DNA of 64,000 nt, taken from positions 1 through 64,000 of IMG/VR virus record IMGVR_UViG_3300046791_000499. One strand, written 5' to 3'. Under the pieces are notes generated by a model. It worked only from the letters and a program-made list of their open reading frames with translations. It did no database searches and was not told where the DNA came from. Both the position numbers and the translations under genes were made by a program. The stretch comes from a virus. Below, in pieces: positions 2,914 to 23,891 of this stretch (positions are counted from its first letter, which is position 1; each line of letters begins with the position of its first letter).

Positions 2914-2919
2914 CCTCCC

Positions 2920-3663
2920 GTGATCGAAGACGTCCAAGCTACCCGCGATGACCGTGAGATCCCCCTCGACCGCGCTGGGGTCTCTGGCCTCCGTCACCCG
3001 ATCACCGTGCTCGACTGGGCCTCGGGCCTGACCCAAGACACCGTTGGCGTGTTCACGGTGTCGGTGTCGCTTCCGTGCGAGCAAAAAGGCACGCACATGA
3101 GCCGCTTCGTCGAGGTGCTCAACGATCACCACGGCGAGGTCACCATGCGGACGATCCCGGTGATCCTGCACGATCTGCGCAAGCGGCTGTACGCAAACCG
3201 CGTGGCACTCGAAGTGACGTTCCCCTACTTCATGGATCGCATCGCCCCGGTCAGCGGCGCGGCGGCGCTCATGGACTACGAGACCACGTTCACCGGTGCG
3301 ACGGACGGGACCTGCGATGACTTCGTGCTACGCGTGAAGGTCCCGGTCACGAGCTTGTGCCCGTGCAGCAAGGCCATCTCCGAGCGTGGCGCCCACAATC
3401 AGCGCGGCTACATCGCCATCTCGGTCCGCTCGGTCGTCACGCTTCCGCCCGTCAACCCGGCGCTGATCTGGATCGAGGAACTCGTGGAGTACGCCGAGCG
3501 ATCCGCCTCGGCTCCCGTCTACCCGCTGCTCAAGCGCGTCGACGAGAAGTTCGTCACCGAGCAGGCGTACGACAACCCCGTCTTCGTCGAGGACATGGTG
3601 CGCAACACCGCTCGGCGATTGATGGATGATCCGCGCGTTGCCTGGTTCGAGGTCCACGCCGAG
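2920..3663 (+). CDS. folE2: GTP cyclohydrolase FolE2 (type IB), N-terminal 248 codons; C-terminus displaced to 22779-22862
   Basis: KGTHMSRF, SLCPCSK, GAHNQR, LLKRVDEKFVTEQAYDNPVFVEDMVR; conserved ESIHNH tail absent here. Confidence 0.93.
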
Positions 3664-5054
3664 AAGATGACCAACTGCTCCGAGTACTGCGCGCGGTGGA
3701 CTCGGTTCGGCTGCCGTCGACCAGGCTGCATCTGCTCGGCGTCACGAGGCCAGGCAACTACGGCGAGTACGTCGCGCGCGGCGTGGCCTCGATCGACTCG
3801 ACGTCTTCGCTGCGCCGGTCGTGGATGGATCGCAAGGCCAACTACTTCTACGGCGGCACCAGCTATTGCGCGCTTCGGATCCCACCGGCGAATTCGAAGC
3901 GGGTCCACGGGCGCATCGGCTCGGGCGAGATCAACGGCGACTCCGCCCGCGTGCTCGAGGAGGCCGCGCTCGCGGCCGTCGCCGCGTTCGACCGCGAGGA
4001 AATGAGCGCCGCCGAGACGCTCGACGTCTTGCTCGCCTACCAGGCCATCCACAGTCCTGACGATGACCGCCGATCCGACTATGCACGCACGCTGAGCGCC
4101 AAGCCTTGGGCCCGGTGCAAGTGCCGGATCTGCGCGCGGCTCGGACACCACGTGATCCTGCTCCGGGGTGCCGAGCGCAACCGGCTCCGCGGCTTTCACA
4201 ACGTAGGCAGGTTCTACGGATCGATGCTGCGCGAGCTGGGCGAGCCGACCCTCGTGCTCGTCGGCTGCGGCGAGGCCAAGCGCAAAGACGCGGGCCCGGC
4301 CAAGGACATCTACACCGGCTCGCTCTACCGCGCGCACACCAAGTTCGCAAACCGGTACCGCGCGCCGGTTCGGATTTTGTCCGCATTGCACGGCGTGCTC
4401 GATCCCGCCAAGGTGATCGAGCCCTACAACAAGGTCGTGCCGAAGCATGGGCCCGAGCGCAGCGCGTGGGGATCGATGATCACCGAGCAGCTCGCCGAGA
4501 TCGTCGAGCCCGGCTCCACGGTCGTGGCCCTCGCGGGAGAGCGGTACCTCGGGTGGATTGGCGACGCCACCGGGCTCACGGTCGAGCAGCCGCTCGCGGG
4601 GATGACCACCGGCAAGAGGCTCGAGTACGTGGCCGGCCAGCCAGCCGAGGAGGCGCGGCCGGTTCGGTCCGGCGCCCCGATCGCGTGGGACTTCTTTTGG
4701 ACCACGTACCGCAGCAGCCTGCGCGGTGAAGCGATCGCGGAGTACTGGACCCGTAACCCCAGCCACACGGCTCGGCTCGATCTTCCCAGCGACACCCCAC
4801 TTCACGAGGCGATCGCAGCCGCGCGCGATGCCGGCCTGTTCGGCAAGGGCTCTCCGCGAACCGGGGTGTTCGAGATCCAGAACGACCTCGGGATCTACTG
4901 GGCCCCGGCCGGGTTCCTCAACATCGGGCTCGCACGGCCTGACCGGGTTCGGTTCATCTCCTGGGATGACGCCGAGCAGGCCGAGGGCAGGGGCGAAGAT
5001 CATCTCTCCAACCCGGGCCTCGGCGTCACGGTGGCGGAGATGGTTGCAGCATGA
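3664..5054 (+). CDS. dpdA: DpdA (DNA 7-deazaguanine transglycosylase, TGT-like) C-terminal half fused to a DUF6884-like domain; N-terminal half displaced to 22988-23582
   Basis: (K)DDQLLRVLRAVDSVR..LHLLGVTR..SIDSTS..CKCRIC..RGAERNRLRGFHN, then LVGCGEAK..AKDIYTGSLY..ILSALHG. Confidence 0.88.
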
Positions 5055-5593
5055 GTTGGTGCTGGTGCCGATACTGCCAGGCAGGCGTGGTTCCGGGCCC
5101 GCTTTGGAAGTGCTCGGAATGCGGCTGCGATCTGGCCGAGACCCACACGGACATCGACGATCTCGAGGTTCCCGATCTCCCTCGAGCGCCGGCCGACTCC
5201 GCATCGATCCGCCACCGCCGGACCCAGAATCCGGTTCGACCTTTCGAGCAGCGGCCACGGCCAGCCACGAACGTGAGCTGTGATCTCCGAGTGCCTGGCG
5301 CTCGCGAAGCTCACCGATGCGCCTCCGCTGCTCGATCGACTTGTCCTTCGCGCGGATCTGCTCGGTGGATAGAGGCCACCCGATTGCGCGCCGAACTGGC
5401 CGGCCTCGCAGGTTCCACCGCCAGAGCCGGAGCAGCCAGCCCAGCCGAACCCATGTCGAACGCGGCCTCCGTTCAACTCGTCTCGCTGCTATCCGCGAAA
5501 CTCCGCGCCCGTAGCATAACGGTGGGGCGCCTGGACGCCACGGATACCGGCGAAGATCCGCCGGCACCCGCCCCACGCGAGCGGTTGGACTGA
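5051..5593 (+). CDS. Hypothetical protein with N-terminal Zn ribbon
   Basis: CRYC...CSEC; ATGA overlap with dpdA. Confidence 0.5.
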   Translation: MSWCWCRYCQAGVVPGPLWKCSECGCDLAETHTDIDDLEVPDLPRAPADSASIRHRRTQNPVRPFEQRPRPATNVSCDLRVPGAREAHRCASAARSTCPSRGSARWIEATRLRAELAGLAGSTARAGAASPAEPMSNAASVQLVSLLSAKLRARSITVGRLDATDTGEDPPAPAPRERLD

Positions 5594-5629
5594 CGGGAAT
5601 CTCGGGCTCGCCAGCGAGGTAGGCCAACC

Positions 5630-5905
5630 ATGTCCATCGAAGATGTTCGCACGCGGCTCTCCAGGCGTGCTCCCGAAGACGGCGCGGCCCTGCTCATGCA
5701 CCACGCCACCAACATGATCCACGAGAGCAGCCGCTTGATCGGTGTCGCGCTTGCCCGCGAATCCGGCCATGTCTTCAACCGTGACCGGGTCTACGAGGCT
5801 GGCAGTCGCGAGGCCAAGTTGATGGCGCTGCAGGTCAAGGCCCGAGAGGTCGAGCAGGCTGCCGACGAACTCCAAGGCTTGCTCTCACCACAGGATGACG
5901 ACTAG
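5630..5905 (+). CDS. Hypothetical protein
   Basis: ORF directly downstream of a GGAAT-N17-GGTAGG motif. Confidence 0.6.
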   Translation: MSIEDVRTRLSRRAPEDGAALLMHHATNMIHESSRLIGVALARESGHVFNRDRVYEAGSREAKLMALQVKAREVEQAADELQGLLSPQDDD

Positions 5906-5907
5906 CC

Positions 5908-6732
5908 ATGGACACCAAAGACAGCGACGCAGACTCCGCCCTATGCCACCAACGCATCGGTCGTTCCCTCCGGCAGATGGACCAGCGCGACAAACTCGGA
6001 TGGCTGCTGACCGAGCAGGCCAATGTCGCCGTGCTCCGAAAGGCGTTGCACGATCTCATCCATGATGACTCCGGCCGGATCAGCAACGATGAGCACGCCC
6101 GCGCTCTCGCTATCTCGGCGACTCTCCAGCGTGCGACCGATTCGGCCGAGAAGATCGTTGTGTTCGGCGGCACCTTCGACCCACCGCACAACGGTCACAT
6201 CGCGTCCGTCGATGCCCTTCGCGCTATCGGTCATCGCGTCGTGGTTGTCACGAGCGCCGGCCATGAGGGCAAGCCTGGCAGCGCCGCGACCTATCAATGG
6301 CGAAAGCATCTCGCCGGGCTTGCCTTCGGCGACTGCCACGATCCGATCGAGGATCACATTGATGTATCCGATCCGCGACGCGCCTTGCTCGTGCTACGTC
6401 GTGTCCGTCAGCAGAACCCACACGCCGAGATCCTCTTCGCCGTCGGGCCCGACATCGACCCAAGGGCTTGGACCGGGTACGAACAGATCATCGGCGACGG
6501 CTTCGACTTCCTGGTCGTGCCCGAGTACGGCACTGGATTGCACAGCACGAACGTCCGCGAGCATGTCGCCACCGGCAACTTCGACGCGCTGACGGGCATG
6601 GTCCCGCCAGCCGTGGTCGAGGCCATGGCCGCGTTGCACGACCAGCCGTTTGCGCACGTGCCGTCCTTCTCGGTGATCGAGCCGGCTCAGCGCCGCGCCG
6701 GCTGGACCGACCATGGGATCGAGTGGCCGTGA
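5908..6732 (+). CDS. NadD-like nucleotidyltransferase (HxGH family) with N-terminal extension
   Basis: VVFGGTFDPPHNGH, FAVGPD, LHSTNVR, MVPPAV. Confidence 0.85.
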   Translation: MDTKDSDADSALCHQRIGRSLRQMDQRDKLGWLLTEQANVAVLRKALHDLIHDDSGRISNDEHARALAISATLQRATDSAEKIVVFGGTFDPPHNGHIASVDALRAIGHRVVVVTSAGHEGKPGSAATYQWRKHLAGLAFGDCHDPIEDHIDVSDPRRALLVLRRVRQQNPHAEILFAVGPDIDPRAWTGYEQIIGDGFDFLVVPEYGTGLHSTNVREHVATGNFDALTGMVPPAVVEAMAALHDQPFAHVPSFSVIEPAQRRAGWTDHGIEWP

Positions 6733-7320
6733 CCGAGCGCCGCATCTCGCAGATGGCTCCGCTCGAGGCAGCCATACGCCCCGAGGTCACGCCGCGAGCC
6801 CAGTACACGGGGTTCCCTGGCATGCTCACCATGCGAGCGGTGGTGAACAACCGCGAGCGCGGCCGCTGGTCCCTCAGCGTCGACACGGCTGCCCCGATCG
6901 CCGACTGGCTCGAGTCGACGGGCCATCCTTCCGCTCCAGAATTCCGCGCAGCCTGGCAACGTGCCTCGCTGCTTCCCGTGAACGAAACACCAGCGAGTGC
7001 AACATGAACATCATGATCGATGAACCCATCCCTCAAACCACCCGCGACGCCTTCGACCCCTACGCCTTCGTCGGCTGGCTCTACACCTGTGTGACCTGGC
7101 AAGACGACGGCCCGCCCGATGAACACGACGGCAGCAGCCCGTGCATCATCGCGCTCGGGGCCACGCAGCTCGGCTGGCGGTTCGATGCCGCCTGCCGCGT
7201 TGGCTGGCGCCTGCTCTTGGAGAACGAAGACGCGGGCCAATGGGCTCGGACGTTCCTCCTCCCGCAGTGCAACAAGTTCATCACCGGGTGTCTGCTCGGC
7301 GAGACGCGGTCGCGGGCCCT

Positions 7321-9060
7321 GTGAAGCTCACCCCGCGTCCGTACCAGATCGAGTCGAAGCGATCGGTCTACCGCGCCTTCAAGGAGGGTGCTCGCCGCGT
7401 GCTGGTCGTCATGCCCACCGGCACCGGCAAGACCGTGACGTTCGCTTCGATCGTCGCTGACGCGGTGGCGCAGGGGAAGCGCGTGGCCATCCTTGCCCAC
7501 CGCGAAGAGTTGCTCGACCAGGCCGCCGAAAAGATCGAGACGCTCGCCGGCATCCCCGTGGCGATCGAACAGGGGACGCGGAAACAGGCAGGCGATGACG
7601 CGCGGGTCGTCATCGCCTGCGTGTTCTCGTTGATCCGTCGGCTCGATCGGTTCCCAGCGGATCGGTTCGATCTCATCATCATCGACGAAGCCCACCGGTC
7701 GCTGGCGAACACGTATCGACAGCTACTTGCACACTTCTCCTCCGCCCGCGTGCTCGGAGTGACCGCGACGCCCAACCGCGGCGATGAACTGGCGCTGGTC
7801 CAGGTCTACTCGATCCTCGCATACGAGATGACGCCAGCAGACGCCGTGCTCAACGGCTGGCTCGTGCCGTATCGGACCGTGACGATCGAACTGCAGTCGC
7901 TCGATCTCACGACCGTGCGGCGGCGCAACGGAGAATTCCTGGCCGGCGAACTCGGGGCGGCCATGTCCGAGATGCGGGCACTACGAGAGGCGGTTGAGCC
8001 CGCGGTCGAACTCGCCGGCCACCTTCGCGCGATCGTGTTCACGTGCACGGTCGCACACATGCACATCGTCGCCGAGACCGTGCGGGCTGTGGCCAACGAG
8101 CGCCGCCTGAGTCTGACGGTGGCCACGGTCGATGGGTCGACCGCGAAGGATGAGCGCCGCCAGATCATGGCCGACTACAAGTCCGGCAAGATCCGCTGGC
8201 TGATCAACGTCGACATCGCGACCGAGGGCTTTGATGCACCCGAGACCGAGGCCATCATCGACATGCAGCCGAACGAGGCCCGCTCGCGGTTCACCCAAAA
8301 GAAAGGCCGCGGCGCTCGACCCCTGCCCGGGGTAGTCGATGGCGTCGATGCAGCCGAGATGGCGGTGCGGCTCGATCTGTTCATGGCCAACGGCCAGATC
8401 CCAACGGAGCCGGACCCTTGGCTGGTCGCGGCCATCATCGGGATCCACCGTGGCGACGATGCAGCAGCACGGAGGATGGCGATCATGATGTCGGCCAAGC
8501 CCGAGTGCCTCGTGCTCGACTTCACCGACAACTCCGGCAAGTTCGATTTGGCCACCGAGATCGACGCCTTGGGCGGGGACTACGAACTTCCGGTCCAGCG
8601 CGAGGCCCAACGACTCCTCGCCGACGGTGGCGCCCGCCACCTGCTCGACGCGCTCGAGCAAGCCCGTGCCGCTCGAGCAGCCAAGATCCGCGAGGCTCGG
8701 GCGAGGCAGGGCGACCCCTTCGCCATGTTCGACATTCCGTTCCGTCAGGAGAAGTACGGCCGGCCACCGACGGAGAAGCACCAGCGCATCGTCGCGCCGC
8801 TCAAGATCCCGATCGCCGAACTCGGGTGGCGCCAGGCCAACGACCTCTGCAACGAGTTGGCGCGGCGCGAGCACGCCGACCTTTCCATGTACGAGCAAGC
8901 CCGGCTTCTTGCGCAGCTCGGCTGCCCGGTCGCGTGGCTTCCAGACATGTCCCGGCGCGAGGCGTCGGAGATGCTGGGTGAACTGGCCAAGGACTACTGG
9001 GTCAGGCCCAAGGACTGGCACGGAATACGCGAGCGGTCCCGTCGGTCGGCTGCTGCATGA
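7321..9060 (+). CDS. Superfamily 2 (DEAH/ResIII-like) DNA helicase
   Basis: LTPRPYQ, MPTGTGKT, IIDEAH, GVTATP, TEGFDAP, QKKGRG; GTG start at 7321. Confidence 0.92.
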   Translation: MKLTPRPYQIESKRSVYRAFKEGARRVLVVMPTGTGKTVTFASIVADAVAQGKRVAILAHREELLDQAAEKIETLAGIPVAIEQGTRKQAGDDARVVIACVFSLIRRLDRFPADRFDLIIIDEAHRSLANTYRQLLAHFSSARVLGVTATPNRGDELALVQVYSILAYEMTPADAVLNGWLVPYRTVTIELQSLDLTTVRRRNGEFLAGELGAAMSEMRALREAVEPAVELAGHLRAIVFTCTVAHMHIVAETVRAVANERRLSLTVATVDGSTAKDERRQIMADYKSGKIRWLINVDIATEGFDAPETEAIIDMQPNEARSRFTQKKGRGARPLPGVVDGVDAAEMAVRLDLFMANGQIPTEPDPWLVAAIIGIHRGDDAAARRMAIMMSAKPECLVLDFTDNSGKFDLATEIDALGGDYELPVQREAQRLLADGGARHLLDALEQARAARAAKIREARARQGDPFAMFDIPFRQEKYGRPPTEKHQRIVAPLKIPIAELGWRQANDLCNELARREHADLSMYEQARLLAQLGCPVAWLPDMSRREASEMLGELAKDYWVRPKDWHGIRERSRRSAAA

Positions 9061-12000
9061 GCCACAAGCCCGACTACAGCGACCCTCCCTACTTCGGCGA
9101 GCCCGACGATGACGAGTTCGAGCCCATCCGCGATGCCGAGATGGAGGCGCTGCAGGCCGACTACCCCGGCGACTTCGTGAGCCGGGTTCGGATCCTGACG
9201 CCGTCCGGCAACTGGATCGAGGCCATCGCTCACCACGGCGATGAGGTCGGGACGCTGCTCGCCACACTGTGCTGCGTCACCGGCCCCAAGAACGAACTCG
9301 AGCGCGACGCCATGGCCGCCCTCCAGAAAGCGCTCACGTCATGATCGGCATGGGCTCCGTGACGATCCAGATCAACGGCGTGCCGCTGCTGCCCGCTGAT
9401 CCGAAAGCAAGGCGCGCGGCCATTCAAGCAAGTGCCGAGACGTTCGGCCGCAACACCGTCGCCGCAGGCTTCAACAAGGCCAGCGACATGCCGAGCCCGG
9501 CGGCGTACCAACGCGCAGCCGCGGCCGCTGCCACGATGATGGAGCATCAAACCATCCATCTGGACCTGCTCGTGAACCTGATCGCGGAAGCTGTGGACAC
9601 GCCATGACCACGCGCGAGTACATCTACATCCCGGCGCGCACGCCTGATGAACAGGCCGCCAATCCTCGCTACGATCCGATCTCCATGGAGCGCAAGCCGG
9701 ATCGTCTCTGGTCATTGGCTGTCGGCCGGCATGATCCCGATGCGGTCATCGACCCCGAGATGCCGCTGATCCACGGCCAGACAGCCTGGGTCGAAGACGT
9801 CGGCCACGACTGGCGATGGCGCGATGGCCAGTTGTTCTACCACCCAGGCGGCGAGCGAGATGGCGGGCTCTGGCTTGCTCTCGTCTTCGCGGAGATGCCA
9901 TGAGCAGGGGATCCAGCGGCTCGTCGTACGGGCACAAGTGCATGCGCCAGCCCATGGATCGGCACGCCTACGTCATCATGTGGGTCACCGATCACAAGCA
10001 CGTGGGCAGCCGTCTCCGCCATCCTCGCGTGAGTCGACGGTACACCGATGAAGCTGGCGCCCGGCGGTTCTGTGCCAAGTGGGGTTGCAAGCTACCCGCC
10101 GGACTCGAGCGGGACGTGAAGGCGTGACGATGGCCAAGCATCTCCAACTTCCCAGCGCTGATCTTCCGCAGTCCGATCGCTATCAGATGCCGGACCCGGA
10201 CGGTGAACTCGGCGAGGCGTACGAGAGGCTGTACCACCAAGCCTATCTCGACCAGCCGCTCAGCCGCGAAGACGTCAAGGACGTGCTCATGCTCGCCCAC
10301 GGCTACCTCGATCTCACCACATACGATCTCGGGCAGGAATGCTGCGTCGGGAAGTTGCGAGACATCTGGCGAGCGCGTCGTCGCCGGGCTGCGGAAGGTG
10401 CCGGATGACCGTCATGGACGGCGGCGGGCCGAGCGAGCAGCCCTTCGAGCGCGTGCACCTGCCGATCCCGCCAGACTTCACGGGGCCGATCTGCGCCGAC
10501 TGCAAGAGCGTCCGTGGCTCGGAGCGTGGAGATCGGTACGCGTTCGGTGTGCATCTCTCCCGCTGCCTTGCCCACGCCTACCGCGTGACCCAGCCCGCCC
10601 GGCGGTGCACGATCACAGGCGAGATCTATCAAGAGCAGATCGAATACCCGCTGTGTCGCGACCACAACGACCTCGGGCAGTGCGAGAGGTTCGAGCCCAA
10701 GCACGGCGTGGGGCTCGTCGCGCTCGAGGAATCTGCTCGAGCGGAGGCCGGCTCCGGCGATCCCTATCGGTCGCTGGTGCCTAGCCGCGGTGGTGACGTC
10801 GGACCCGGTGAACTGCGCGGCGGCGGCCCTGGCCCGTTGAAGCTGTTGGCAGGCAGCATCGGCCGCTGGCTCGTCATCTGGGGTTCGTCGTGACCGATCT
10901 TCGTCCGGCGCTCTCCGCCAAGCTCAAGATCCTGAGCGAAGGTCCGCAGTGGTTCACGTGGCCTGGCTTCGGTAACGAGACGCTGCAGCGGCTTCGGCTC
11001 GAAGCAGTGCCCGAGCAAGCGGCCTTTGATCCGCCCGGCGTGCTCGCCATCATCGTCAGCCGATCCAAGTTCGGGCTCGCCCGCGTCGTCTACAAGGACG
11101 GGCTGTGGGCGCACGATGTCCGATGGCTGCACGGCGGTGGCGTGGGCAGCCTTCCGATCTCGGCCTCGCTCCGAATCCACCGGCCGGACGTTCGCGCCGT
11201 GGCCACCGAGTCCCGCGACCGTGCTTCACCGGAGACACCCTCATGACCCTCGACGAAACCATCCGCGACTGCGTGCACTTCTACCCCTCGCTGTTCGAGA
11301 GCCGCATCTCTGCGCTCGACCATCTCTACTGCGTGCTCGGCAACGGCTACGACTGGCAGGACGGGGTGCTCGTGGAGCGCGGCACCTACAAGCCGTTTGA
11401 GCCCATGGTCCGGCTCGAGCACCAACGCCAAGCACGGGAGGAAGAGTTCTCGGATGCGCTCTCTGGTGTTCTCAGCGACTGGTACGTGAAGCGGGCAGCG
11501 GTCATCCGACGCGTGCACGAAAACGAGCAGGCGATCGTGACCGGCGCCATGAACTACACCCTCGTGGGCAAGCACGGATTCTACCCGCTGACCGCGATCT
11601 CGTGCCCTCGCCATCTGTCCGAGGTTCCCGACGATGTCCAACCCGACTGGCTTGCTGGCGCCGTCGAGGTCGCGGAGCTGATCATCGCGTTCGGCGAGCA
11701 CTTTGACCGGGCCTTCGTGGTTGGCGAGTTCGAGGATGACACCGATCGGCGGCGAGAAAACGCTCAGGCCAACGCCGCGGTCGCCAAGGTCGTGCTCGCG
11801 GATCTGCGCGCCAGGTTCCCGGGATGCTCTGCGCCGCCCGGCCTGGGGCTCGCTGGGCTCACCTGGAATGCCGCGCCGTCCTCCCCGGTCGAGCCCAATC
11901 ATGGGGTTCATCCACGACACTGACGACCCGTCCTTCAACGGGATCACCGTTGAGTCCCGCTCGAATGCCAAGACCTTCGTGCTCGGGCTCGACCTACTCG

Positions 12001-15782: not shown

Positions 15783-16069
15783 CCGGTCCGCGCAACAACC
15801 GTGGAAAGTCAGCCGGATCGTTCGGTCTCGCAGCACCCGGATCTTGTAGACGAGCGCGCTCGCGATCGAGTACGTTGACGATCCGAAGATGAGCAGGCCC
15901 ACAAAAGGGCCGAGCCCCAACACCGCGACAGGCAAGAAGCGGGGGAGGGGCTCAGAGCGGGAGAGGAGCCCGCCGACATGAGCGAAGATACCCACACAAG
16001 CGATCCACGTCAACCCGCCATAGTTGCGCCGCATCAACTCGATCTGCGGTTGAGCGAGCGGAGGTCGCC

Positions 16070-17263
16070 GTGACCCATGTGACAGACGTCGACTGGTTCA
16101 ATATCAAGGCCGCGGCGTGGATTTACCGGCTGCCAGAGTCACGGAAGGGCCTATGCGCCGGGTGCAAGGTCATCATCCAAATCCTCTGGAACCGAGTCAA
16201 CGGTTCGGTGGAGTCCGACACTACGCACGCCCAGTCCCCGTGGGTCTCCGTGGAGACGCTTGCCGAGCAATGCGGGGCCAAGCCGGACACCGTTCAGGCG
16301 AGGCTCGACAAGCTGACGGCTCTCGGTTGGATCCGTAGGCACAAGGGTCGGCGCCTGCTCGCGTGGGGGCGTCCGTTCCCCAAGCCAGAGGCCAGTCCGG
16401 GCCTGGCGGATTCACCAGAGGCAGCCAGTGTCAGCGAGACCGGGCCAGGATTCGAGTCCTCCACAAGTGAAGCCGGGCGCCGGGATTCGAGTCCTCCCGC
16501 GCCGGGATTCGAGTCCTCCCGCGCCGGGATTCGAGTCCTCCCGCGCCGGGATTCGAGTCCCGAGGATCAACCCAATAACCAAGCCATTGAACCAAGCCAA
16601 GACCAACCCAAGGTCGATGAGACTCTCGCCCCAGCGAGTAGGCCGAGTCTGCTGACGGACACTGCGCCACCCGCGAGGCGTCGGCGCAAGCGCGTCGACT
16701 CCACGCAAGAGTCTCTGCCCATACCCGGCACCGAACCGCCGGAGCAGGTCAAGGCCGACCAGGCCCAGCTTGTGGCGGATCGCCTGTGGTCTCGGCAGGC
16801 CGAGACCCGCGCGGCCCTCAAGATGCCGGTGACCGGTACGAAGTCGGTGCTCGATGCCAACCGCCGAGGGAAAATCAACACGCGGATCGCCGACTACGGT
16901 CTCGACGCCTGTTATCGTGTGATCGAGGTCGATGCTTCGGATTGCTTGAAGCAGGGTCGCGGTGGGTCGTCTTGGGGATACTGGAATCTCGACACCCCAT
17001 TCAGGAACGCGACAAATTTTGAACAGCGGCTCAACCGCTGGCGAGATGACGGAAAGCACGTCCCGTGGGGTGCACCATCGCGACGAGACCAGTCTTGGTC
17101 GCAGGGCTCCGGGATCGGCTCCCGCGAAGCACACCGAGCCCAGCGCGAGAAGTTGGAGCGCGAGGCCACCGAGCGGGGCGAGACCATCCCGGACGAGGTC
17201 GGCTACTGCGACAACGACGATGACTGCAGCAACGATGAGCGCATGGAGGCGGTCCACCAATGA
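16070..17263 (+). CDS. Phage replication initiator/replisome organizer (N-terminal wHTH, internal iterons)
   Basis: SVETLAEQCGAKPDTVQARLDKLTALGWI HTH; contains tandem repeats; lies upstream of loader and DnaB. Confidence 0.8.
   Translation: MTHVTDVDWFNIKAAAWIYRLPESRKGLCAGCKVIIQILWNRVNGSVESDTTHAQSPWVSVETLAEQCGAKPDTVQARLDKLTALGWIRRHKGRRLLAWGRPFPKPEASPGLADSPEAASVSETGPGFESSTSEAGRRDSSPPAPGFESSRAGIRVLPRRDSSPEDQPNNQAIEPSQDQPKVDETLAPASRPSLLTDTAPPARRRRKRVDSTQESLPIPGTEPPEQVKADQAQLVADRLWSRQAETRAALKMPVTGTKSVLDANRRGKINTRIADYGLDACYRVIEVDASDCLKQGRGGSSWGYWNLDTPFRNATNFEQRLNRWRDDGKHVPWGAPSRRDQSWSQGSGIGSREAHRAQREKLEREATERGETIPDEVGYCDNDDDCSNDERMEAVHQ
16445..16560 (+). repeat. 22-bp iteron-like tandem repeat (gccgggattcgagtcctcccgc), probable replication origin
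   Basis: Copies start at 16479, 16501, 16523 and 16545 (partial), plus a degenerate copy near 16445; 3x22 bp keeps the frame. Confidence 0.85.
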
Positions 17264-18195
17264 CCAGCACAACGGCTACGGCCGCAGCCCTGCTCACGCT
17301 CACCAAGCACAAGCGTGAGCGCGCGGCCGGTCATGTTGCGAGCTTCAAGCGGATCCAGTCGCAGCTCGGAGACGACGTCGCTGCTTGGGCCTACGCGGAC
17401 AAGGGCATCGGGCCCGGCTTGCGGGCCCCGTGTGCGACCGCGACTGAGTTGGCGAAATGGGATCCCAGCGCGGGCGATTGGTGCCGAGTGATCAGCGGCT
17501 CGCAGGGGACGGGAAAAAGCGTCACGGCTGCTCGGTATGTCGCAGAGCACGGCGGGATGATGGTCAGTGCCGTGTCGGCTGACGCATGGGGATTCGGCGG
17601 AGGTCGACCCCTACTCGCCGCGATGGAAGCACCGTGGCTGCTGATCGACGACCTCGGAGAGAGCAAGACCCGGCCGGGAGACGGGAACCTCGGCACGTTG
17701 ATTGCCGAGCGCTACGCCAAACGATCTCGCTGCTACCTGGTGATCACGACCGTACTGACCCCGGAGCAGATCGAGCAGCGCTACGGCGAGAACGTCTCGT
17801 CGAGGTTGCGGCCTCACATCATTCAATTGTTCGCACGAGAGACGGCCGACCGGCGAGGCACTACACCGCCAGTGCTCACGGGGTTCAACCGGGAGATGGA
17901 GATCGCATGGTACGGCGAGCGAGTCGAATACGCTGCTGCAGGCGTGCTCGAACTCGGCGCAGCGACCGAGGCAATCACCCGACTGGCCGAGGTCACCGGG
18001 GTCGATCTCGCCGGGGAGAAGATGAACGCCGCCTTGGCTGGCGAGGCGGAGCGTCAAGAGACGCTCGCCCGGCTCGGCTCGGCGACGATCGCAGCGCTCG
18101 GGGCACCCGTGCTTCGGCTTGTGCCGCCACATGATCCACGCGGCGATGATCTGCTGGAGTGGATCGACTCGCTCGATTCGGGGGCCACCAAGTGA
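17260..18195 (+). CDS. DnaC/IstB-like ATPase (helicase loader)
   Basis: ISGSQGTGKS, LLIDDLG, LIAERY, VITT, SSRL. Confidence 0.8.
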   Translation: MTSTTATAAALLTLTKHKRERAAGHVASFKRIQSQLGDDVAAWAYADKGIGPGLRAPCATATELAKWDPSAGDWCRVISGSQGTGKSVTAARYVAEHGGMMVSAVSADAWGFGGGRPLLAAMEAPWLLIDDLGESKTRPGDGNLGTLIAERYAKRSRCYLVITTVLTPEQIEQRYGENVSSRLRPHIIQLFARETADRRGTTPPVLTGFNREMEIAWYGERVEYAAAGVLELGAATEAITRLAEVTGVDLAGEKMNAALAGEAERQETLARLGSATIAALGAPVLRLVPPHDPRGDDLLEWIDSLDSGATK

Positions 18196-19640
18196 ATCTG
18201 ACGACGTCATCCGAACGAGCACTCATTGGCGGCACGCTGGACCGCGGCGCTGTCGAACTGTCATTGGTACGCAGCGAGGTCAAGCCGGACATGTTCTCGT
18301 GCGATCCGGTTCGCGCCGTGCTCGAGGCTGCATGCGCCGTAGTGGACGGTGGCCGCGAGCTGACGATCGTCGAAGTCGCCTCGGCGCTCGAGCAGGCGGG
18401 GAGCCTCGATGCGGTTGGTGGGCTGCGCGGGCTCGACGAACTTCGGAGCGAAGCCCGACCGATCGGCGAACGGGAGGCACTACTGCGTCACGTTCGAGAT
18501 GCCGCGCAACTTCGCAAGGTCGGGGCCAAGGCGGCCAAACTCGGTGCTGCTGCTGCGCATCCGCTGGCGATCGCAAATCCAAGTCGGTACTTCGCCGCGA
18601 TCACGGCGATGTCCAACGAAGTCCAGGGCTCGATCAGCACTGGGACCGCGAGCGCGGCTCAGGGTTGCCGGGCTTCGATGGAAGCCCTTCTCGCGCGAGG
18701 CAAGCGGGTCAGCGCATCGCCGACGGGTGTCTCCGCCTTGGATCGACTTCTCAATCCTGGGATCAAGCGCAAGAAGACGTACTTGGTCGCAGCCCGACCA
18801 GGCTGCGGCAAGTCTGCGCTCGCTGTTCAGGCCATCGGCGTCGGTGCGAGTGCTGGCCACCCGCAACTGTTCTTCTCGTGCGAGATGCCGCTGTCCGACG
18901 TCTTCGATCGCATCGTGGTCCAGCGGACGCGGATCGACTCGGAGCGCTACGAAGTGGGGACCGGCGCGAACGGGCTCAGCGAAGCCGAGTTTCGGCTGGT
19001 GATCTCGGAGATGGACCGCGTCTCGCAGTTGCCGATCTGGACGATCGACGACGAATCCGAACTCGGGTCGATGTTGGCCAAGAGCAAGGTCTGGCTGGAT
19101 ACGGTGGCCTGGCCCTGGATCGAGCAGCACCGAGGCGAACCCGGGCCCGACGGCCGGGAGATGGATCTCGTGCCCGTGGTCGGTATCGACTACTTCCAAC
19201 GGTGCTGGCTCGACGGCAAGTGGGGCACGACCGAGGAGATGTTCGCTACCATGTCCAAGCGGATCGCCAACTTCGCGCGCAAGGAGAACTGCGCGATGAA
19301 GGTCATGGTCCAGGCCAACAAGGATAACGTGAAGGAGAACCGACCGCCCCGCGCCTCCGACATGAAGTACTGCGACGCGCTCGCGGCCGACGCCGACGTG
19401 GTGATCCTGCTGCATCGCAACCTCGGAGCGGACACGAGCGACCCCAGCGAGACCGCGATCGACGAGCGCGGCCGGTCCGTCGAGGAGCCGGCGATGATCA
19501 TCGTGGACAAGCACCGAGGCGGCCGGGTCGGTGTTGCGTGGGCGACATGGCACGGTCCAACGGTCCGGTTCTCCGACCGCGAGCACGAGGGCCCGTGGGT
19601 CCCGAAGGCCGTGGCGGCCGGGAAGCCAGGCCGCCGATGA
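18192..19640 (+). CDS. dnaB: Replicative DnaB-like helicase
   Basis: AARPGCGKS, FSCEM, IDYFQ, DADVVILLHR, IVDKHRGG. Confidence 0.92.
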   Translation: MNLTTSSERALIGGTLDRGAVELSLVRSEVKPDMFSCDPVRAVLEAACAVVDGGRELTIVEVASALEQAGSLDAVGGLRGLDELRSEARPIGEREALLRHVRDAAQLRKVGAKAAKLGAAAAHPLAIANPSRYFAAITAMSNEVQGSISTGTASAAQGCRASMEALLARGKRVSASPTGVSALDRLLNPGIKRKKTYLVAARPGCGKSALAVQAIGVGASAGHPQLFFSCEMPLSDVFDRIVVQRTRIDSERYEVGTGANGLSEAEFRLVISEMDRVSQLPIWTIDDESELGSMLAKSKVWLDTVAWPWIEQHRGEPGPDGREMDLVPVVGIDYFQRCWLDGKWGTTEEMFATMSKRIANFARKENCAMKVMVQANKDNVKENRPPRASDMKYCDALAADADVVILLHRNLGADTSDPSETAIDERGRSVEEPAMIIVDKHRGGRVGVAWATWHGPTVRFSDREHEGPWVPKAVAAGKPGRR

Positions 19641-19690
19641 GCCCGGGAATGCCGGACCAGGCTGCGAGGTCAGGGGTCCGAAGCCTACCC

Positions 19691-21512
19691 ATGGACCTGT
19701 CCAAGTATCCGATCGAGACTCGCGCACGAGCTGCGCTTCGGATCACCGCGGACCTGTACGCCAAGGCGCAGGCCGGGCCGAGCGAGACCCCAAAGTACGA
19801 GGCCCGGCGCATTGCGTTCTTGAAGGTTCGCCCTGCCGTCGTGCTGACGGCCGAGCGAGCCATCTTCCGGGCGTCCAGCGAAGCCCTCCTCGCCGCTGCC
19901 GAGTCCGCGAACGGCCAGGCGCCCGACGAAGCCGATCCGAGGCAAGCCCTCATCGACGCCCTGCTCCGCATCGCCAAGGTCCAGGACGATGAGTTCGCAG
20001 CCGAGTGCGCAGCCGTCGACGAAGGCGAGTTGGCCGTCCAACGGTTGCTCGAGCACGCCATCTCCAAGCTGAGCAGCAAGCCGGAGCGCAGGCCCGGTAT
20101 CCGCCTGACCTCGGCCCCGTGCGACCACGGACTTGTCCAAGGGCGCATGCGATTCGACTCGTGTGCCGATGGACCCGACCCGTGCCTCGCCGCCGTTCGC
20201 TTGGTCGAAGCCGAAGTGCGAGCAGGGCTCAGCGGACCCAGGGCGCCATTGCCCGTACCTCGTGATACTCCAGAGACCGAAACCCTCGCCAAAGACATCC
20301 TCTCACACGACGAGCCCCACCATGAGCAGCCAACAAGCTACCGCCAACAACGTGATCAGCATGCCCACCCCTGACCCCCGAGACACCCATGTCCGCGCCT
20401 TCGCTGGCATGCGTGCTCTCTACATGATCAAAGAGAAGCTCATCGCCGCTCAGGCTGTGGCCAAGGCGGACTGGAAAGAGAAGAAGTCGGCCGCGACCAA
20501 GGAGTACCGCGAGCCGATCCGAGACCAGTTCGACGCGATCGTGGGCGTGAACATCGACCTGTCCGGCAAGGACAAGGGCACGCAGACGATGAAAACGAAC
20601 TACGCGGAAGCGTTCATCGTGGTTGTCCGCGGTGTGAAAAATTACGACAACGTGAAGTCCGATGCCGATGCGGACAAAAAAGCACGCAAGGATCGCATCG
20701 ACGCGATGGAGATGGCGATCAAGGAATGCGTCAGCGCGGCGACCGTGAATCCCAACCAGGGCAGCCTCTTTCCGCCTACCGGCGGCTCCGTCGATGGGCT
20801 GGCGTGGGCGAGCGCGGCGACCCGCGCCGCGATGTTCACGTCGCTCAAGGAACTCGATCGAGACAAGGTCACGCTCGATTGCTTCCAAGAGAGCCTCTTG
20901 CTCGATCTCGGCGGCGCGGGGATCGAGGAACTCGACCTCGGGCTGGATGCGTCCACGGCGGTCGAAGCCGATGGCGTCGAAGCCGAGCCACCCACGGAAG
21001 GTGAGGGCGCCAGCGATGATGACCTTGGGTTCGACTAGGTCGCGGTGGCCAGTCTACGCGGCCGTGTCCGGTTTCGTGGCGTTCATCCTTTCGCTCATCG
21101 TGAGGCTGATCGGATGACCGCCGCGATGACATGGCTCGAGATCACGGCCGCGGTATTCGAGGGGCTACTGCTTCCAGCCGAGCACGCGGATCCCTGGAAA
21201 CTCGACCGCGTCAGCCCCGGGATCGAGGCAGCCGCGTTGCTGATCTGCGCGATCGGTCGCTGCGAGGCACACACCGGACTGCGCCCCAACCAGGTCACCA
21301 CGTCGGTCCAGCCGACGTTCGTGGCCAGGTACCTCGGGGCCGATGACCGAAGCGCGGTGCTTGAGTCGTGGCCAGGCGAGGATGATCCCGCCGAGGTCGT
21401 GCTTGGGCTTTCATCCGAGACAGCAAACGAGGCGCGCACACTGGCGCGCGATGCCGCGACCGACGACGCGCCGTTCTTGCGCATGGCTGAGTTTCTACGA
21501 GGGGAGCCATGA
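19691..21512 (+). other. Three hypothetical genes (19691-20374, 20323-21038, 21115-21512)
   Basis: Consecutive ORFs in operon orientation. Confidence 0.55.
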
Positions 21513-21889
21513 CAGATCACGACGAGCAGGCCGACCTCGGCCAAGCGGTCGCCGATGTCGATCGGCGGCTCCGCGTGTCGTGGCCATCGTCATACACGGC
21601 CAGCGGGCTCCTCTCGCACCTCCGGGGTGAGCTTCGCGAGATCGAGCAAGCCGTGCTCGATGCAGACGGCCGGCCGAGCATGAACGGTGAGGTCGTCGAG
21701 GAGTGCGGCGACGCGATGTTGCTGCTCGGGCGGCTGGCGATGATGTACGGCGCCAAGTCTGCACTCGAGCCCCTGGCCCTTGCGGTGCGCAAGACATGCC
21801 GGCGACTCGAGCACTTCGAGCAGTTGGTCAGGTCATCCCCACCTGCAGAGGCTTGGCGTGTGGCGAAGATATTAGCGAGGCGCAAATGA
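21509..21889 (+). CDS. MazG-like nucleotide pyrophosphohydrolase
   Basis: HLRGELREI...EVVEECGDAML ExxE/ExxD pattern. Confidence 0.7.
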   Translation: MTDHDEQADLGQAVADVDRRLRVSWPSSYTASGLLSHLRGELREIEQAVLDADGRPSMNGEVVEECGDAMLLLGRLAMMYGAKSALEPLALAVRKTCRRLEHFEQLVRSSPPAEAWRVAKILARRK

Positions 21890-21922
21890 GCGTGGGGCCG
21901 ACGGGCAATAAGGGTCAATCCA

Positions 21923-21931
21923 TGTTATACT
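21923..21931 (+). promoter_or_regulatory. Extended -10 (TGnTATACT) sigma70-like element just upstream of tnpB
   Basis: tgttatact in an AT-rich patch, 4 nt before ATG 21936. Confidence 0.55.
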
Positions 21932-21935
21932 CGTT

Positions 21936-22778
21936 ATGTTGATTCGGACGTACAAATACCCGCTGAGGCCAACTGCTGCCCAGCGGGCAGGGTTCGAGCG
22001 GTGGCTCGGCCAGAGCTGCGAACTCTACAATGCCGCGCTGGAGCAGCGTATTACTGGGTACCGACGTACGGGCAAGAGCGTCACATACAACGACCAAACG
22101 AGGCAACTGACCGAGTTGCGCAACGCTGAGCCGGAGTTCGGAGCGTTGCCGGTCCGGGTCCAACGCTCGGCCCTGCGTCGGCTCGACAAAGCATTTCAGG
22201 CGTTCTTTGGTCGAGTGAAGTCCAAGGCATCGAAGGCAGGCTTCCCACGTTTTCGGGCGCGGGCGCGCTACGACACATTTGGCATAGGCCGGGTGGGGCC
22301 CCGGCTGGACCAGGCCGATTCGAGCACCGGCCACCTACGTGTGGCCGCTCTTGGCCTGGTCCGGTTTCGCATGCGCCACGAAATGATCGGAGACGTCCGA
22401 GACGTCACGATCACGAAAGACAGCCGGGGTCGGTGGTTCGTGTGCTTCGCCTGCGATGTGGGCGAAGCGCCGCCGAAACGAACGGTGACCACCGCGGTGG
22501 GCATCGACCTCGGGCTGTCGTCGTTCGCTACGCTCACCGACGGGTCCGAGATCGCAAACCCACGCCACACCCGGACCGCCGCCGAGTCGCTGGCTCGTGC
22601 GCAACGCGTACTCTCGCGCAAGTCGAGGGGCAGCCGCTCGCGGGCGAAAGCGAAGGCTGCGGTCGCCCGCGTGCACGAGCGCATCCGCAACGCGCGACGC
22701 GACTTCCACTACAAGACGGCGCGAGCGCTGGTCGAACGCTACGACCTCATCGCGCATGAAGATCTGTCGATCGCCAGG
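21936..22778 (+). CDS. tnpB: TnpB (IS200/IS605-family RNA-guided endonuclease), N-terminal part
   Basis: RTYKYPLRPT, LYNAAL, GFPRFR, VGIDLGL (RuvC-I), AHEDL (RuvC-II); interrupted after EDLSIAR. Confidence 0.93.
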
Positions 22779-22862
22779 AACATCGAGTCCATCCACAACC
22801 ACTCGGCCTTCGCCCAGGTTACGTGGTCGCGCGAGCACGGCTTCGTGGGGACCAGGCCATGA
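22779..22862 (+). CDS. folE2: FolE2 C-terminal fragment (currently fused in frame to TnpB-N)
   Basis: NIESIHNHSAFAQVTWSREHGFVGTRP*; ESIHNH is the conserved FolE2 C-terminal motif. Confidence 0.92.
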   Translation, partial: NIESIHNHSAFAQVTWSREHGFVGTRP

Positions 22863-22988
22863 AGAACTCGGCTGCCAGCCGGTCGCCGCCCATCTCGTCG
22901 ACGATGATCCCGATCTCCCAACGGACCTGCTCCTGGTGAGCGTCTCGCTCGGCCCTGTTGCGCAGCCATGACGGCAAGCGCTTGGTCA
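22862..22988 (+). repeat. 127-bp direct repeat, copy 2, separating the dpdA ATG from codon 2
   Basis: Identical to 1-127; deleting 126 bp gives ATG AAG TTC TTC CTG CCC GAT AGC (MKFFLPDS). Confidence 0.93.
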
Positions 22989-23582
22989 AGTTCTTCCTGC
23001 CCGATAGCCGCGACTCGGTCGACACCACGTTCGACTTCACCAAGGAGACCCGCTCGCCGGACCGGATCCCGCGCGATGAACTCTACATCCACGAGATGCT
23101 CGACCGATCCGTGGATGGGCTGCTCGTCTCCTACGCGGGGCTCCGCGATGGCAGGTACTCGGCCGCGGCTCGACGTCGGTTCATGCGTGAAGGCGCCCGT
23201 GGGTTCTTCCGCGCGGCTCCGTGGATGAGTTTCATGGGGGACCCCGGCGCGTTCTCCTACATCAAGGAGTCCGAGCCCCCGGTCACCGTCTCCGAGGTCG
23301 CCGAATTCTACGGGTCCGTGGGGATCGATCTCGGCATGGCCGTCGACCACATCGTGAGCGGGTACTCCGACGAGCTGTTCGAGGATCCCGATCCCGAGCA
23401 GCAGCGACGCTATGATCTGACGCTCGCGCTCGCCAGCGACTTTCTCGCGGCCGCGAAGCCCCACGCGTTCGAGCCCGTCGGCGTCGTCCAGGGTTGGAGC
23501 CCTGCCTCCTACGCTCGCGCCGCTGCCGAACTCCAGCGCATGGGCTACGGCTACCTCGCGCTCGGCGGCCTGGTCAGGCTCA
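22988..23582 (+). CDS. dpdA: DpdA N-terminal half
   Basis: KFFLPDSRD, DGLLVS, MGDPGAFSY, AVDHIV, GVVQGWSPASY, YLALGGLVRL. Confidence 0.9.
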
Positions 23583-23891
23583 ATGGTTCATGGAAACCTG
23601 GCAAAGAGCATCCACGACGTGGGTTGGGCTCAGTTCATCACGATCCTGCACTGCAAAGCGGAAGAAGCTGGCGTGCATGTGGTCGCGGTGGACCCCAGGA
23701 ATACCACGCGTGAGTGCTCGAACTGTGGTGCGATCGTCCCCAAAGGACTGGGCGATCGCATCCATTCCTGTGACTGCGGCCTGACGTTGGGGCGCGATCA
23801 CAACGCTGCAATTAATGTCCTTGCCCGTGGCTTACGGGCGGTACCCGGCGGTGACGTCGGACCAGGGCCGCATCTGCGGCAGAGCCCGTGA
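23583..23891 (+). CDS. tnpB: TnpB C-terminal part (Zn ribbon + RuvC-III)
   Basis: LAKSIHDVGWAQF, VDPRNTTRECSNCG, CDCGLTLGRDHNAAINV. Confidence 0.92.
   Translation: MVHGNLAKSIHDVGWAQFITILHCKAEEAGVHVVAVDPRNTTRECSNCGAIVPKGLGDRIHSCDCGLTLGRDHNAAINVLARGLRAVPGGDVGPGPHLRQSP

Follow-up and report, generated by a model that had tools for sequence, protein, structure and literature searches.

How pieces of three phage genes came to lie in one another's place, and whether a short sequence directed the breaks, are the questions raised by this locus. The window (the whole 64,000-nt stretch analyzed, positions 1 to 64,000 of IMG/VR record IMGVR_UViG_3300046791_000499) belongs to a complete phage genome of 143 kb with 66% G+C, in which parts of folE2, dpdA, and tnpB have been shuffled. 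In an initial annotation, the breaks were placed right after a shared GCCNNGA motif and the moved block was read as ending in TCAA, as in IS608 and ISDra2. If the motif were real, it would point to a transposase-like enzyme mobilizing ordinary gene fragments in phages, which would then have a new way of scrambling genes and of losing anti-restriction DNA modification.

A base-exact rearrangement of three genes

The shuffling of the gene pieces (Table 1) is real and base-exact. The reconstructed ancestral order is A (folE2 5′ part)–B (804 bp)–D (19.1 kb)–E (tnpB 3′ part), and the present order is A–D–B–E with a 126-bp copy of a distant gene nested in B. The donor joint is exact and there is no target-site duplication: FolE2, DpdA, and TnpB are all rebuilt with no codon lost or gained. 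The rebuilt FolE2 reads ...EVHAENIESIHNHSAFA, the DpdA halves adjoin in the alignment to intact homologues with one Lys codon re-formed from AA/A (here and below, a slash marks the break), and the TnpB halves adjoin exactly and at equal length (HEDLSIAR/MVHGNLAKSIHD versus HEDLNIAGLAKTRLAKSIHD in the homologues). All three genes were knocked out by the rearrangement. Every moved piece has kept its orientation, the landing sites are all in dispensable genes, and the moved segments are arbitrary gene pieces that are not multi-copy.

When the window was compared with three Logan contigs (k=31; run SRR26075152), the identity was 100% across all five junctions and ran through positions 3665, 22779, 22862, 22988, and 23582. 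The Logan contigs (6.4, 16.4, and 45.5 kb) end only at 127-nt, 84-nt, and tandem repeats, as expected. An origin of the arrangement in assembly or library preparation, with no counterpart in the phage DNA, is thus extremely unlikely, even though the contig start coincides exactly with the repeated 127-nt segment, the contig ends overlap by 119 nt, as is typical of a de Bruijn assembler, and the arrangement occurs in one sample only; these independent contigs cross every junction, a chimeric assembly requires shared k-mers and not 1–3 nt, and random chimeras do not yield reciprocal base-exact junctions. The reconstructed ancestral folE2 and tnpB junctions had no exact match in IMG/VR or in JGI metagenome contigs, and a related-locus search with the C-terminal part of DpdA did not find a close phage relative. 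Identity to the closest intact homologues reaches only 70% for TnpB and 62% for DpdA, so that no ancestor was available at the DNA level. The useful outcome is a clean case from nature, confirmed by independent contigs, in which a block changed places base-exactly through three breakpoints and carries a nested templated insertion.

Table 1. Coordinates of the gene pieces, junctions (J1–J5), and additional rearrangements in the window
Feature	Position	Strand	Evidence or remarks
folE2 5′ part (248 codons), ends ...EVHAE	2920..3664	+	PF02649, E=2e-76, profile positions 2-248 of 260
J1 (folE2 5′ / dpdA 3′), GCCGAGAA, overlap AA (2 nt)	3658..3665	+	Logan L004 spans, 100% identity
dpdA 3′ part fused to DUF6884	3666..5054	+	PF21818, E=5e-29; aligns to residues ~207-650 of intact 648-663-aa homologues
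tnpB 5′ part (HTH_OrfB_IS605 + OrfB_IS605)	21936..22778	+	Pfam domains, homologue alignment
J2 (tnpB 5′ / block), GCCAGGAA, overlap GA	22773..22780	+	Logan L002 spans
Transposed block, 804 bp: last 13 folE2 codons, ATGA stop/start overlap, dpdA 5′ part	22779..23582 (alternative register 22780-23583)	+	
126-bp net templated insertion in dpdA codons 2-3	22862..22988	+	127 nt identical to contig 1-127 (J3, J4)
J3 and J4 (both ends of the 126-bp insertion), overlaps AAG and A	22862..22988	+	
J5 (block / tnpB 3′), GGCTCAAT, overlap A	23576..23583	+	Logan L003 spans
tnpB 3′ part (Zn-ribbon/TNB domain)	23583..23891	+	PF07282, E=1.6e-21
Retained source of the 126-bp copy, in an intact minus-strand gene crossing the circular junction	1..127	-	Left flank GCGGAAC/AAG, without GCCNNGA
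14-bp tandem duplication (GCCGGAGATGAAAC twice) between AACGC repeats, slippage signature	63402..63429	+	
32-bp micro-inversion in DDE-transposase remnant, flanked by AAG...CTT, without GCCNNGA	63489..63520	.	Intact homologue P0148

The GCCNNGA motif exceeds chance only marginally

The motif strings are present where the initial annotation had placed them (3658-3665, GCCGAGAA; 22773-22780, GCCAGGAA; 22856-22863, GCCATGAA), and with the breaks set after GCCNNGA the 804-bp block (22780-23583) ends in GGCTCAA and the 126-bp insert (22863-22988) in GGTCA. Their excess over chance was marginal. GCCNNGA occurs at a frequency of 0.0027 per position per strand, and GCCNNGAA at 0.00045. With three random breakpoints and ±1 nt of slack, at least five invariant columns in any 7-nt window of a 24-nt span were found in 0.8% of the trials, and six of eight invariant columns in 4% of the trials when these were conditioned on the A/A centre common to all five junctions and the best three of five were taken. 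The motif P value is thus approximately 0.008 after post-hoc correction and approximately 0.04 given AA at every junction and the three-of-five pick. Three of the four independent left flanks contain GCCNNGA (nominal P 0.01–0.04); the fourth, which flanks the source of the 126-bp copy and reads GCGGAACA/A, does not.

Further junctions did not strengthen the motif, as GCCNNGA is lacking both at this source flank and at the extra junctions at 63.4 kb. Codon-usage frame segmentation recovered the known junctions, but at other coding-frame breaks and segment boundaries GCCNNGA was not enriched (55 observed versus 48.5 expected), and the other segmentation candidates (~57027, 19635-20334, and 5041-5669) matched no Pfam family. 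As it stands, the motif is too weak to carry the transposase-like reading. It is probably mostly a coincidence, because the junctions look like joins at tiny A-rich overlaps and not like transposase cuts.

Break sites show short overlaps and a one-sided AT-rich flank

The overlaps at the five junctions are AA, GA, A, AAG, and A, i.e. 1–3 nt each. Compared with random joins, the probability that all five are at least 1 nt is 0.023 and that their sum is at least 9 is 0.039; the overlaps thus exceed random expectation, with modest support. In the six reconstructed break sites (S1–S6), A occupies position +1 without exception, each break lying immediately 5′ of an A, and positions +2 to +5 are A or T in 17 of 24 cases against a mean of 8.0 in this 66% G+C genome (P ~5e-5). 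AAG, the frequency of which is 0.010, stands at the break in S2, S4, and S5 and at both inversion ends at 63.4 kb; S1, S3, and S6 read AAC, ATG, and AGT. The consensus of the right flank is roughly AAGWTC, and the bottom strand reads ...CTT/ at five of eight sites. Inspection by eye of the aligned site columns revealed no common motif at a fixed offset. This A/AAG pattern was found post hoc in six to eight partly dependent sites. Of the proposal that the breaks are sequence-directed, the non-random position therefore stands (A at +1, AT-rich right side, overlaps), while GCCNNGA and TCAA as its reason do not. The junction signature, A at +1 with a one-sided AT-rich pentamer, could be sought in other high-G+C phage genomes.

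A second scrambled spot lies at 63.4 kb, for which the evidence is limited to the IMG/VR contig and the comparison with the homologue. P0148 reads KRKHGASVRAKHFTAQRNELLC, the two halves of which the window carries on opposite strands. The inversion and the 14-bp duplication are classic replication-error signatures in another dispensable gene remnant.

Recombination enzymes of the phage

No Y1 TnpA (PF01797) was matched in the complete 143-kb phage under conditions where control genomes matched. Serine, tyrosine, and IS110 recombinases (PF00239, PF00589, PF01548) also gave no match in the complete phage, PF02371 gave only a 15-bit sub-threshold match, and no topoisomerase IA, IB, or II was found in the complete genome. 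A Pfam sweep of 161 candidate ORFs showed no such recombinase or topoisomerase among the families listed (25 of 28 in batch 1). The earlier observation that neither TnpA nor a recombinase is visible in the window thus extends to the entire phage. Site-specific recombination of the serine, tyrosine, or IS110 type is also contradicted by the sites, which have no crossover core of at least 2 nt in common, because the tnpB site has a single A (AGG/A/TGG). The phage does have genes for RecT, a PDDEXK exonuclease (DUF3799), a FEN-type 5′-3′ exonuclease, and SSB.

Microhomology-assisted illegitimate recombination as the favoured explanation

We consider it probable, with some reservation, that the junctions arose by illegitimate recombination that did not depend on homology but was assisted by microhomology, as template switching or end joining, where the genome is locally AT-rich, and not by transposase cuts at GCCNNGA and TCAA. 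The 126-bp insert resembles a templated insertion, being a copy with an intact source; the presence of overlaps at all five junctions, the A at +1 with the AT-rich asymmetry, and the replication-error spot at 63.4 kb also count in favour, as do the absence of recombinases and topoisomerases from the phage, its RecT, exonucleases, and SSB, and the kept orientation and dispensable landing genes of the moved pieces. The exact junctions, their overlaps, the AT-rich asymmetry, the retained source, and the lack of recombinases in the phage are direct observations; the chemistry (replicative or end-joining), the single event, and the direction of synthesis are inferred. One complex event would be the most likely course. 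A nascent strand, probably moving leftward, may have frayed once an AT-rich patch (AAG, AAC, or ATG) had been copied, re-annealed via 1–3 nt at another AT-rich patch, and later resumed at its exposed points of departure, so that each template base would have been copied once. Alternatively, several simultaneous breaks could have been re-ligated via 1-nt A/T overlaps. The GCCNNGA strings at folE2 and tnpB would then form part of an imperfect 6/8 match (CGCCGAGA versus CGCCAGGA) between the partners of one junction, and the third, at the dpdA start codon, would be a coincidence.

Several features count against this explanation. At three breakpoints the block was moved without the gain or loss of a single nucleotide, whereas in ordinary MMBIR/FoSTeS or MMEJ some bases are usually lost or duplicated; an assumption of a return to the vacated point, or of clean ends, is therefore needed. 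The overlaps are always A-rich, although G/C overlaps are expected to be four times commoner by chance, and could instead reflect the specificity of an enzyme. The occurrence of GCCNNGA in most of the independent left flanks and the failure to find an ancestral form in IMG/VR or the JGI contigs also weigh against it.

Possible enzymes from outside the phage

An enzyme of the host is an unlikely alternative. A sequence-preferring host nuclease or nick-and-join enzyme would have cut at AT-rich sites of the N/A(A)G type, after which the pieces would have been joined again in another order. Such an enzyme could be restriction-like and leave 1-nt A/T overhangs that ligase or NHEJ then seals, or it could resemble a type IB topoisomerase and recognize one side only. 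Both the base-exact conservation and the kept orientation would be accounted for by 1-nt overhangs that are not palindromic or by covalent intermediates. The invariant A at +1, the recurrent AAG, the AAGWTC-like flank, and the fact that every site is conservative and all fragments are orientation-true are consistent with such an activity, but the phage encodes no such enzyme, the consensus is loose in that half of the sites (S1, S3, and S6) deviate from AAG, the poxvirus-type CCCTT site is absent, no fixed-offset motif was seen, and the pattern was recognized post hoc. It is quite improbable that an in-trans nick-and-join activity (HUH-like, topoisomerase-like, or a nuclease producing 1-nt A/T overhangs) with one-sided recognition of approximately N/AAGWTC moves arbitrary DNA conservatively; if true, this would amount to base-exact 'pseudo-transposition' of non-element DNA within a phage genome.

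I-TevI-like CNNNG, IS91-like GTTC/CTTG, the type I-E CRISPR PAM AAG, DpdA-induced abasic sites at GA, and T7-type primase GGTC sites were set aside, their positions or orientations being inconsistent.

An IS608-like transposition is very unlikely. A Y1 HUH transposase (IS200/IS605), acting in trans from the host or from a different element, would have peeled off the 804-bp and 126-bp pieces as single strands, pasted them 3′ of GCCNNGA, and cut their right ends after TCA(A). In IS608, excision and insertion are exact without target duplication, the right end is cleaved after TCAA, and subterminal imperfect palindromes lie 19 nt and 10 nt from the cleavage sites (PMC3201880). The exactness seen here, GCCNNGA in three left flanks, the right ends GCTCAA and GGTCA, and the insertion of the block in a tnpB gene agree with this model, as do two related phage tnpB elements that end in GTCAA/ and GTCAC/. 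Against it stand the complete phage genome without TnpA, the single-copy, arbitrary nature of the moved segments, the marginal P value of the motif, and the junctions already known to lack it. When eight end segments of the block and insert were folded as ssDNA on both strands, no hairpins exceeded those of shuffled sequences (z -1.64 to +1.20), and the sole small stem, at the right end of the block, adjoins TCAA instead of lying ~10 nt away.

The ends themselves did not behave as those of one element. The donor and target of the block (GCCGAGA versus GCCAGGA) share GCC..GA, but for the 126-bp piece the source (GCGGAACA) and target (GGCCATGA) have only the final A in common. Of the two registers allowed for the block, only one ends in TCAA, and because the base after the small insert in its source is G, that end reads GGTCA/G and not TCAA. 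Placed by analogy with the two relatives, the resident tnpB element probably has its right end at 23899, ...GAGTCGCATG/ (CATG/), and ...AAATG/ as its left flank; ends so placed would restore an ATGA gene overlap and would be unlike GCCNNGA or TCAA. Thus, a GCCNNGA target with a TCAA right end, as proposed from IS608 and ISDra2, found no support in the marginal motif, the missing hairpins and TnpA, and the lack of a common right-end tetranucleotide. In Rfam, the region 21700-24300 had no match. Comparison of a would-be omega-RNA guide region with the junction contexts gave only a 12-nt identity in the interior of the 126-bp piece (chance ~0.1), which was rejected as a cause of the breaks because it is not at the ends of that piece.

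Comparison with known systems

The locus resembles IS608 and ISDra2 in the exact re-sealing of the donor, the absence of target duplication, the insertion 3′ of a short sequence, and a possible ...TCAA reading of the right end. It differs from them in that TnpA, subterminal imperfect palindromes, and guide sequences are absent, the DNA moved is an arbitrary piece of two genes and not an element, the second moved piece has another left flank and no TCAA, and the junction overlaps are not needed by IS608 chemistry.

Topoisomerase-mediated recombination would share the conservative break-and-join without loss of bases, and one-sided recognition would allow hybrid junctions to be re-cut at the same place; the bottom-strand ...CTT/ is a further resemblance. 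Vaccinia topoisomerase IB acts at CCCTT, and T4 topoisomerase II or gyrase causes illegitimate recombination by subunit exchange. In contrast, this phage has no topoisomerase gene, the CCCTT site is not present, and the pattern is loose and post hoc.

RecET or lambda Red-type illegitimate recombination in phages joins DNA at very short homology, and the RecT and PDDEXK exonuclease encoded by this phage would fit such a system, but the known events typically use homologies somewhat longer than the overlaps found here. With FoSTeS/MMBIR, quasi-palindrome template-switch mutations, and replication slippage, the locus has in common the 1–3-nt overlaps at all junctions, an insertion copied from elsewhere with the source retained, the nearby micro-inversion with inverted microhomology and slippage duplication, and the clustering of junctions in one region. 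It differs from this class in its three-breakpoint swap, unusually conservative to the base, and in its exclusively A-rich overlaps at break sites with a one-sided AT-rich pentamer.

Gene pieces and gene order

Alignment of the gene pieces to intact homologues confirmed the rearrangement as the initial annotation had described it, and both the strings and this rearrangement are genuine. Since the halves of the split genes align to intact homologues with nothing missing, the ancestral order was A-B-D-E (A, folE2 5' part; B, 804-bp block; D, 19.1 kb; E, tnpB 3' part), and the present order is A-D-B-E. In TnpB, the homologues read HEDLNIAG-LAKTRL-AKSIHD and the window HEDLSIAR/MVHGNL-AKSIHD, at equal length; in DpdA, GGLVQLKTEQ corresponds to GGLVRL/(K)/DDQ, the Lys codon being remade from AA/A, and taking out 126 bp brings back MKFFLPDS in the alignment to intact DpdA homologues. 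The move was base-exact: the three ancestral sites together carry six A residues (2 + 3 + 1), and so do the three new junctions (2 + 2 + 2).

Split-gene parts, features near 63.4 kb and reconstructed ancestral break sites S1-S6 (slashes mark breaks)
Feature	Position	Description
folE2 5' part	2920-3664	loses sense after ...EVHAE
folE2 last 13 codons (NIESIHNHSAFAQ...)	from 22779	behind tnpB codon 281
dpdA start and first ~200 codons	22859-23582	ATG at 22859-22861 overlaps folE2 stop as ATGA
Remaining dpdA, fused to DUF6884	from 3666	
tnpB continuation	from 23583	
32-bp inversion	63489-63520	flanked by AAG...CTT
14-bp tandem duplication	63402-63429	adjoins inversion, between AACGC repeats
S1		...GCCGAG/AACATC
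S2		...GGCTCA/AAGATG
S3		...GCCAGG/ATGGTT
S4		...GCCATG/AAGTTC
S5		...CGGAAC/AAGAAC
S6		...TTGGTC/AGTTTC

Three Logan contigs (k=31 assembly of run SRR26075152) were 100% identical to the window over 98-16506, 16531-22891 and 22959-33713, the last of these being the analysed part of a 45.5-kb contig. They break only at repeats of at least 31 nt, namely the 127-nt copy and a tandem repeat at 16.5 kb. Because these independent contigs cross the junctions, a second assembler has passed through all five (3665, 22779, 22862, 22988, 23582). De Bruijn chimeras cannot arise from overlaps of 1-3 nt, and the rearranged form dominates in the SRR26075152 sample; the ancestral form was not found in IMG/VR or JGI contigs. 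The tandem repeat, at 16477-16560, consists of four 22-nt units (GCGCCGGGATTCGAGTCCTCCC) with a tRNA T-arm-like GGATTCGAGTCC, and a fifth, degenerate copy lies directly upstream.

Window 22862-22988 is identical to positions 1-127 of the contig, which lie within a minus-strand ORF that is open across the circular junction; this ORF being intact, the source was kept, which makes the dpdA piece a copy. The insert can be placed after ATG, ATGA or ATGAA; as the source goes on ...GGTCA/G, its piece is contiguous only in the first two registers.

At a second scrambled spot, the intact transposase homologue P0148 reads ...MIKRKHGASVRAKHFTAQRNELLC..., and in the window FTAQRNELLC is encoded by the plus strand and KRKHGASVRAKH by the minus strand; the homologue segment is thus split over both strands, which identifies the 32-bp inversion. 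The spot (63385-63660) contains the C-terminal remnant of a DDE (PF01609-type) transposase; upstream, ~90 bp resemble a minus-strand gene junction.

The phage genome

The first 64 kb of an IMG/VR phage contig of 143,093 bp (65.8% G+C, terminal overlap of 119 nt), rated complete, make up the window. A Pfam sweep of 161 candidate ORFs showed a tailed phage (portal, major capsid, tape measure, baseplate, TerL) with DnaB, SSB, RecT, a PDDEXK exonuclease and a FEN-type exonuclease, as well as an HNH endonuclease, an ECF sigma factor and several DNA-modification genes. Genes for DNA modification and nucleotide metabolism lie at 14508-15782, 36840-37643 and 2920-5054; those of the phage include a PurA-like adenylosuccinate-synthetase homologue, a Mom-family protein, ThyX, methylases and the now-broken FolE2/DpdA pair. 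Right behind dpdA-DUF6884, 629 nt (5041-5669) have neither coding signal nor gene call and close with a promoter-like GGAAT-N17-GGT site ahead of an ATG at 5630. An 84-nt repeat, 97.6% identical, at 68449-68532 and 78056-78139 of the whole contig (G000; locus L007) begins exactly at a minus-strand stop codon, so that two genes have their last 27 codons in common.

The GCCNNGA motif

The three octamers on which a shared junction motif had been proposed are present (GCCGAGAA, 3658-3665; GCCAGGAA, 22773-22780; GCCATGAA, 22856-22863). GCCNNGA is found 391 times on one strand and 373 times on the other (0.0027 per position); background frequencies are 0.00045 for GCCNNGAA and ~0.0022 for TCAA. Since the motif was derived from the sites themselves, the look-elsewhere effect was simulated, and three random breakpoints with ±1 nt slack gave at least 5 invariant columns, in any 7-nt window within 24 nt, in 0.8% of trials. 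AA lies at the centre of all five junctions, three of which had been picked; conditioned on A/A and with the best triple taken, 6/8 invariant columns appeared in 4% of trials. There are four independent left flanks (folE2 site, tnpB site, dpdA-ATG site, source of the 126-bp copy), and the fourth, GCGGAAC/AAG, is without the motif, as are the junctions of the inversion and duplication near 63.4 kb. Codon-usage segmentation found the known junctions again, and at the other 200 frame boundaries GCCNNGA was not enriched (55 observed vs 48.5 expected). As a recognition motif it is not convincingly more than chance: the match is marginal at best and additional junctions lack it, the observations that the initial annotation itself had named as counting against its claim.

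At ~57027 the coding signal jumps between plus-strand frames (ORFs 56753-58429 and 56487-57452) with no nearby stop or start, which could be a frameshift or another junction; neither a Pfam family nor GCCNNGA was found there.

Composition of the break sites

The six ancestral sites were aligned in the register permitted by all events. Position +1 is A in 6/6, +2 is A in 4/6, +3 is G in 4/6 and +5 is T in 5/6. A+T makes up 17 of the 24 positions from +2 to +5 vs a mean of 8.0 at random A-starting sites (P about 5e-5), and the five junctions overlap by AA, GA, A, AAG and A (random joins: P = 0.023 for all at least 1, P = 0.039 for a sum of at least 9), patterns that were found post hoc at sites that are not fully independent, as the partners of a junction have their overlap in common. 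The left side has ordinary composition, and both ends of the inversion likewise break at /AAG. Compared with the GCCNNGA signal, the AT-rich asymmetry is far stronger.

Mobile-element features

IS608 depends on TnpA, on imperfect palindromes that lie subterminally, 19 nt and 10 nt from where cleavage occurs, on guide tetranucleotides, and on a fixed left target (TTAC) and right cleavage site (TCAA) (PMC3201880). The proposed recombinase search, run on the complete phage, yielded no match for Y1 TnpA and no resolvase, IS110 or tyrosine integrase; no topoisomerase was found in the phage either. Subterminal hairpins, suggested for the block ends, did not exceed shuffled controls in eight end segments of block and insert folded as ssDNA (z-scores -1.64 to +1.20). 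The donor left flanks of the two moved pieces are unlike (GCCGAGA for the block vs GCGGAACA for the 126-bp piece), their right ends have only TCA in common, and the moved DNA is an arbitrary, single-copy slice of two genes.

Two related phage tnpB elements, L018/L019 (IMGVR_UViG_3300035180_002250) and L038/L040, have copies in two sequence contexts each, which allows their ends to be mapped. They end ...GTCAA/ and ...GTCAC/ (...GGAGTGTCAA/ and ...GAGTCGTCAC/, each behind a GCTTTAGC-loop hairpin), and their left flanks differ between copies. By analogy with these, the resident tnpB element would have its right end ...GAGTCGCATG/ at 23899 and the left flank ...AAATG/, a boundary that would restore an ATGA overlap of genes 21509-21889 and 23897-24289; these putative ends are unlike GCCNNGA or TCAA.

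At the tnpB 3' end, AATGTCCTNGCCCGTGGCTTACGGGCGGT (near 23814-23842) is almost invariant in four loci (the window and loci L005, L012 and L013) whose proteins are only ~70% identical; this block is probably an omega-RNA scaffold and had no Rfam match. A 12-nt identity, ATGATCCCGATC, is found at 23897-23908, 22904-22915 and 43-54. One copy forms the first codons of the gene directly 3' of tnpB, at the place from which an omega-RNA guide would be taken; the other lies inside the 127-nt repeat, preceded by CGACG, and CCGACG is also present in the tnpB left-end region (~21908-21913). The match, with a chance probability of ~0.1 after search-space correction, would make TnpB cut roughly midway along the copied piece.

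Mechanism

The junctions fit microhomology-assisted illegitimate recombination, as indicated by the short A-rich overlaps, the templated copy with retained source, the micro-inversion with inverted microhomology, the slippage duplication, the lack of a recombinase and damage confined to genes regarded as dispensable (tnpB, the transposase remnant, folE2/dpdA). In a replicative version, a leftward-synthesised strand would fray once an AT-rich patch had been copied, land by 1-3 nt on another such patch and later go back to the vacated points as the sole exposed template; every template base would then be copied once, which would explain the base-exact conservation. After the 126-bp detour, the strand would find its way back by the 3-nt AAG of its departure site. 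End joining of several clean breaks, whose 1-nt A/T overlaps would enforce orientation, fits equally well. On this reading, the motif GCCNNGA at S1 and S3 would belong to a 6/8 imperfect match between the partners of the tnpB 5'/block junction, and at S4 it would be a coincidence.

Exclusively A-rich overlaps and perfect conservation are atypical for random template switching, and breaks made by a sequence-directed enzyme from the host are a rather unlikely alternative. Candidates would be an HUH-like enzyme, a topo-IB-like one that recognises a single side, or a nuclease that leaves A/T overhangs. IS608-like transposition, as read from the GCCNNGA and TCAA ends, fails in every defining feature except exactness (no TnpA, no end hairpins, unlike flanks).

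We regard the rearrangement as a well-verified and instructive case of a known event class with an unusually conservative outcome, and not as evidence for a new transposition system; of the features of IS608, exact excision without duplication is the sole one shared.
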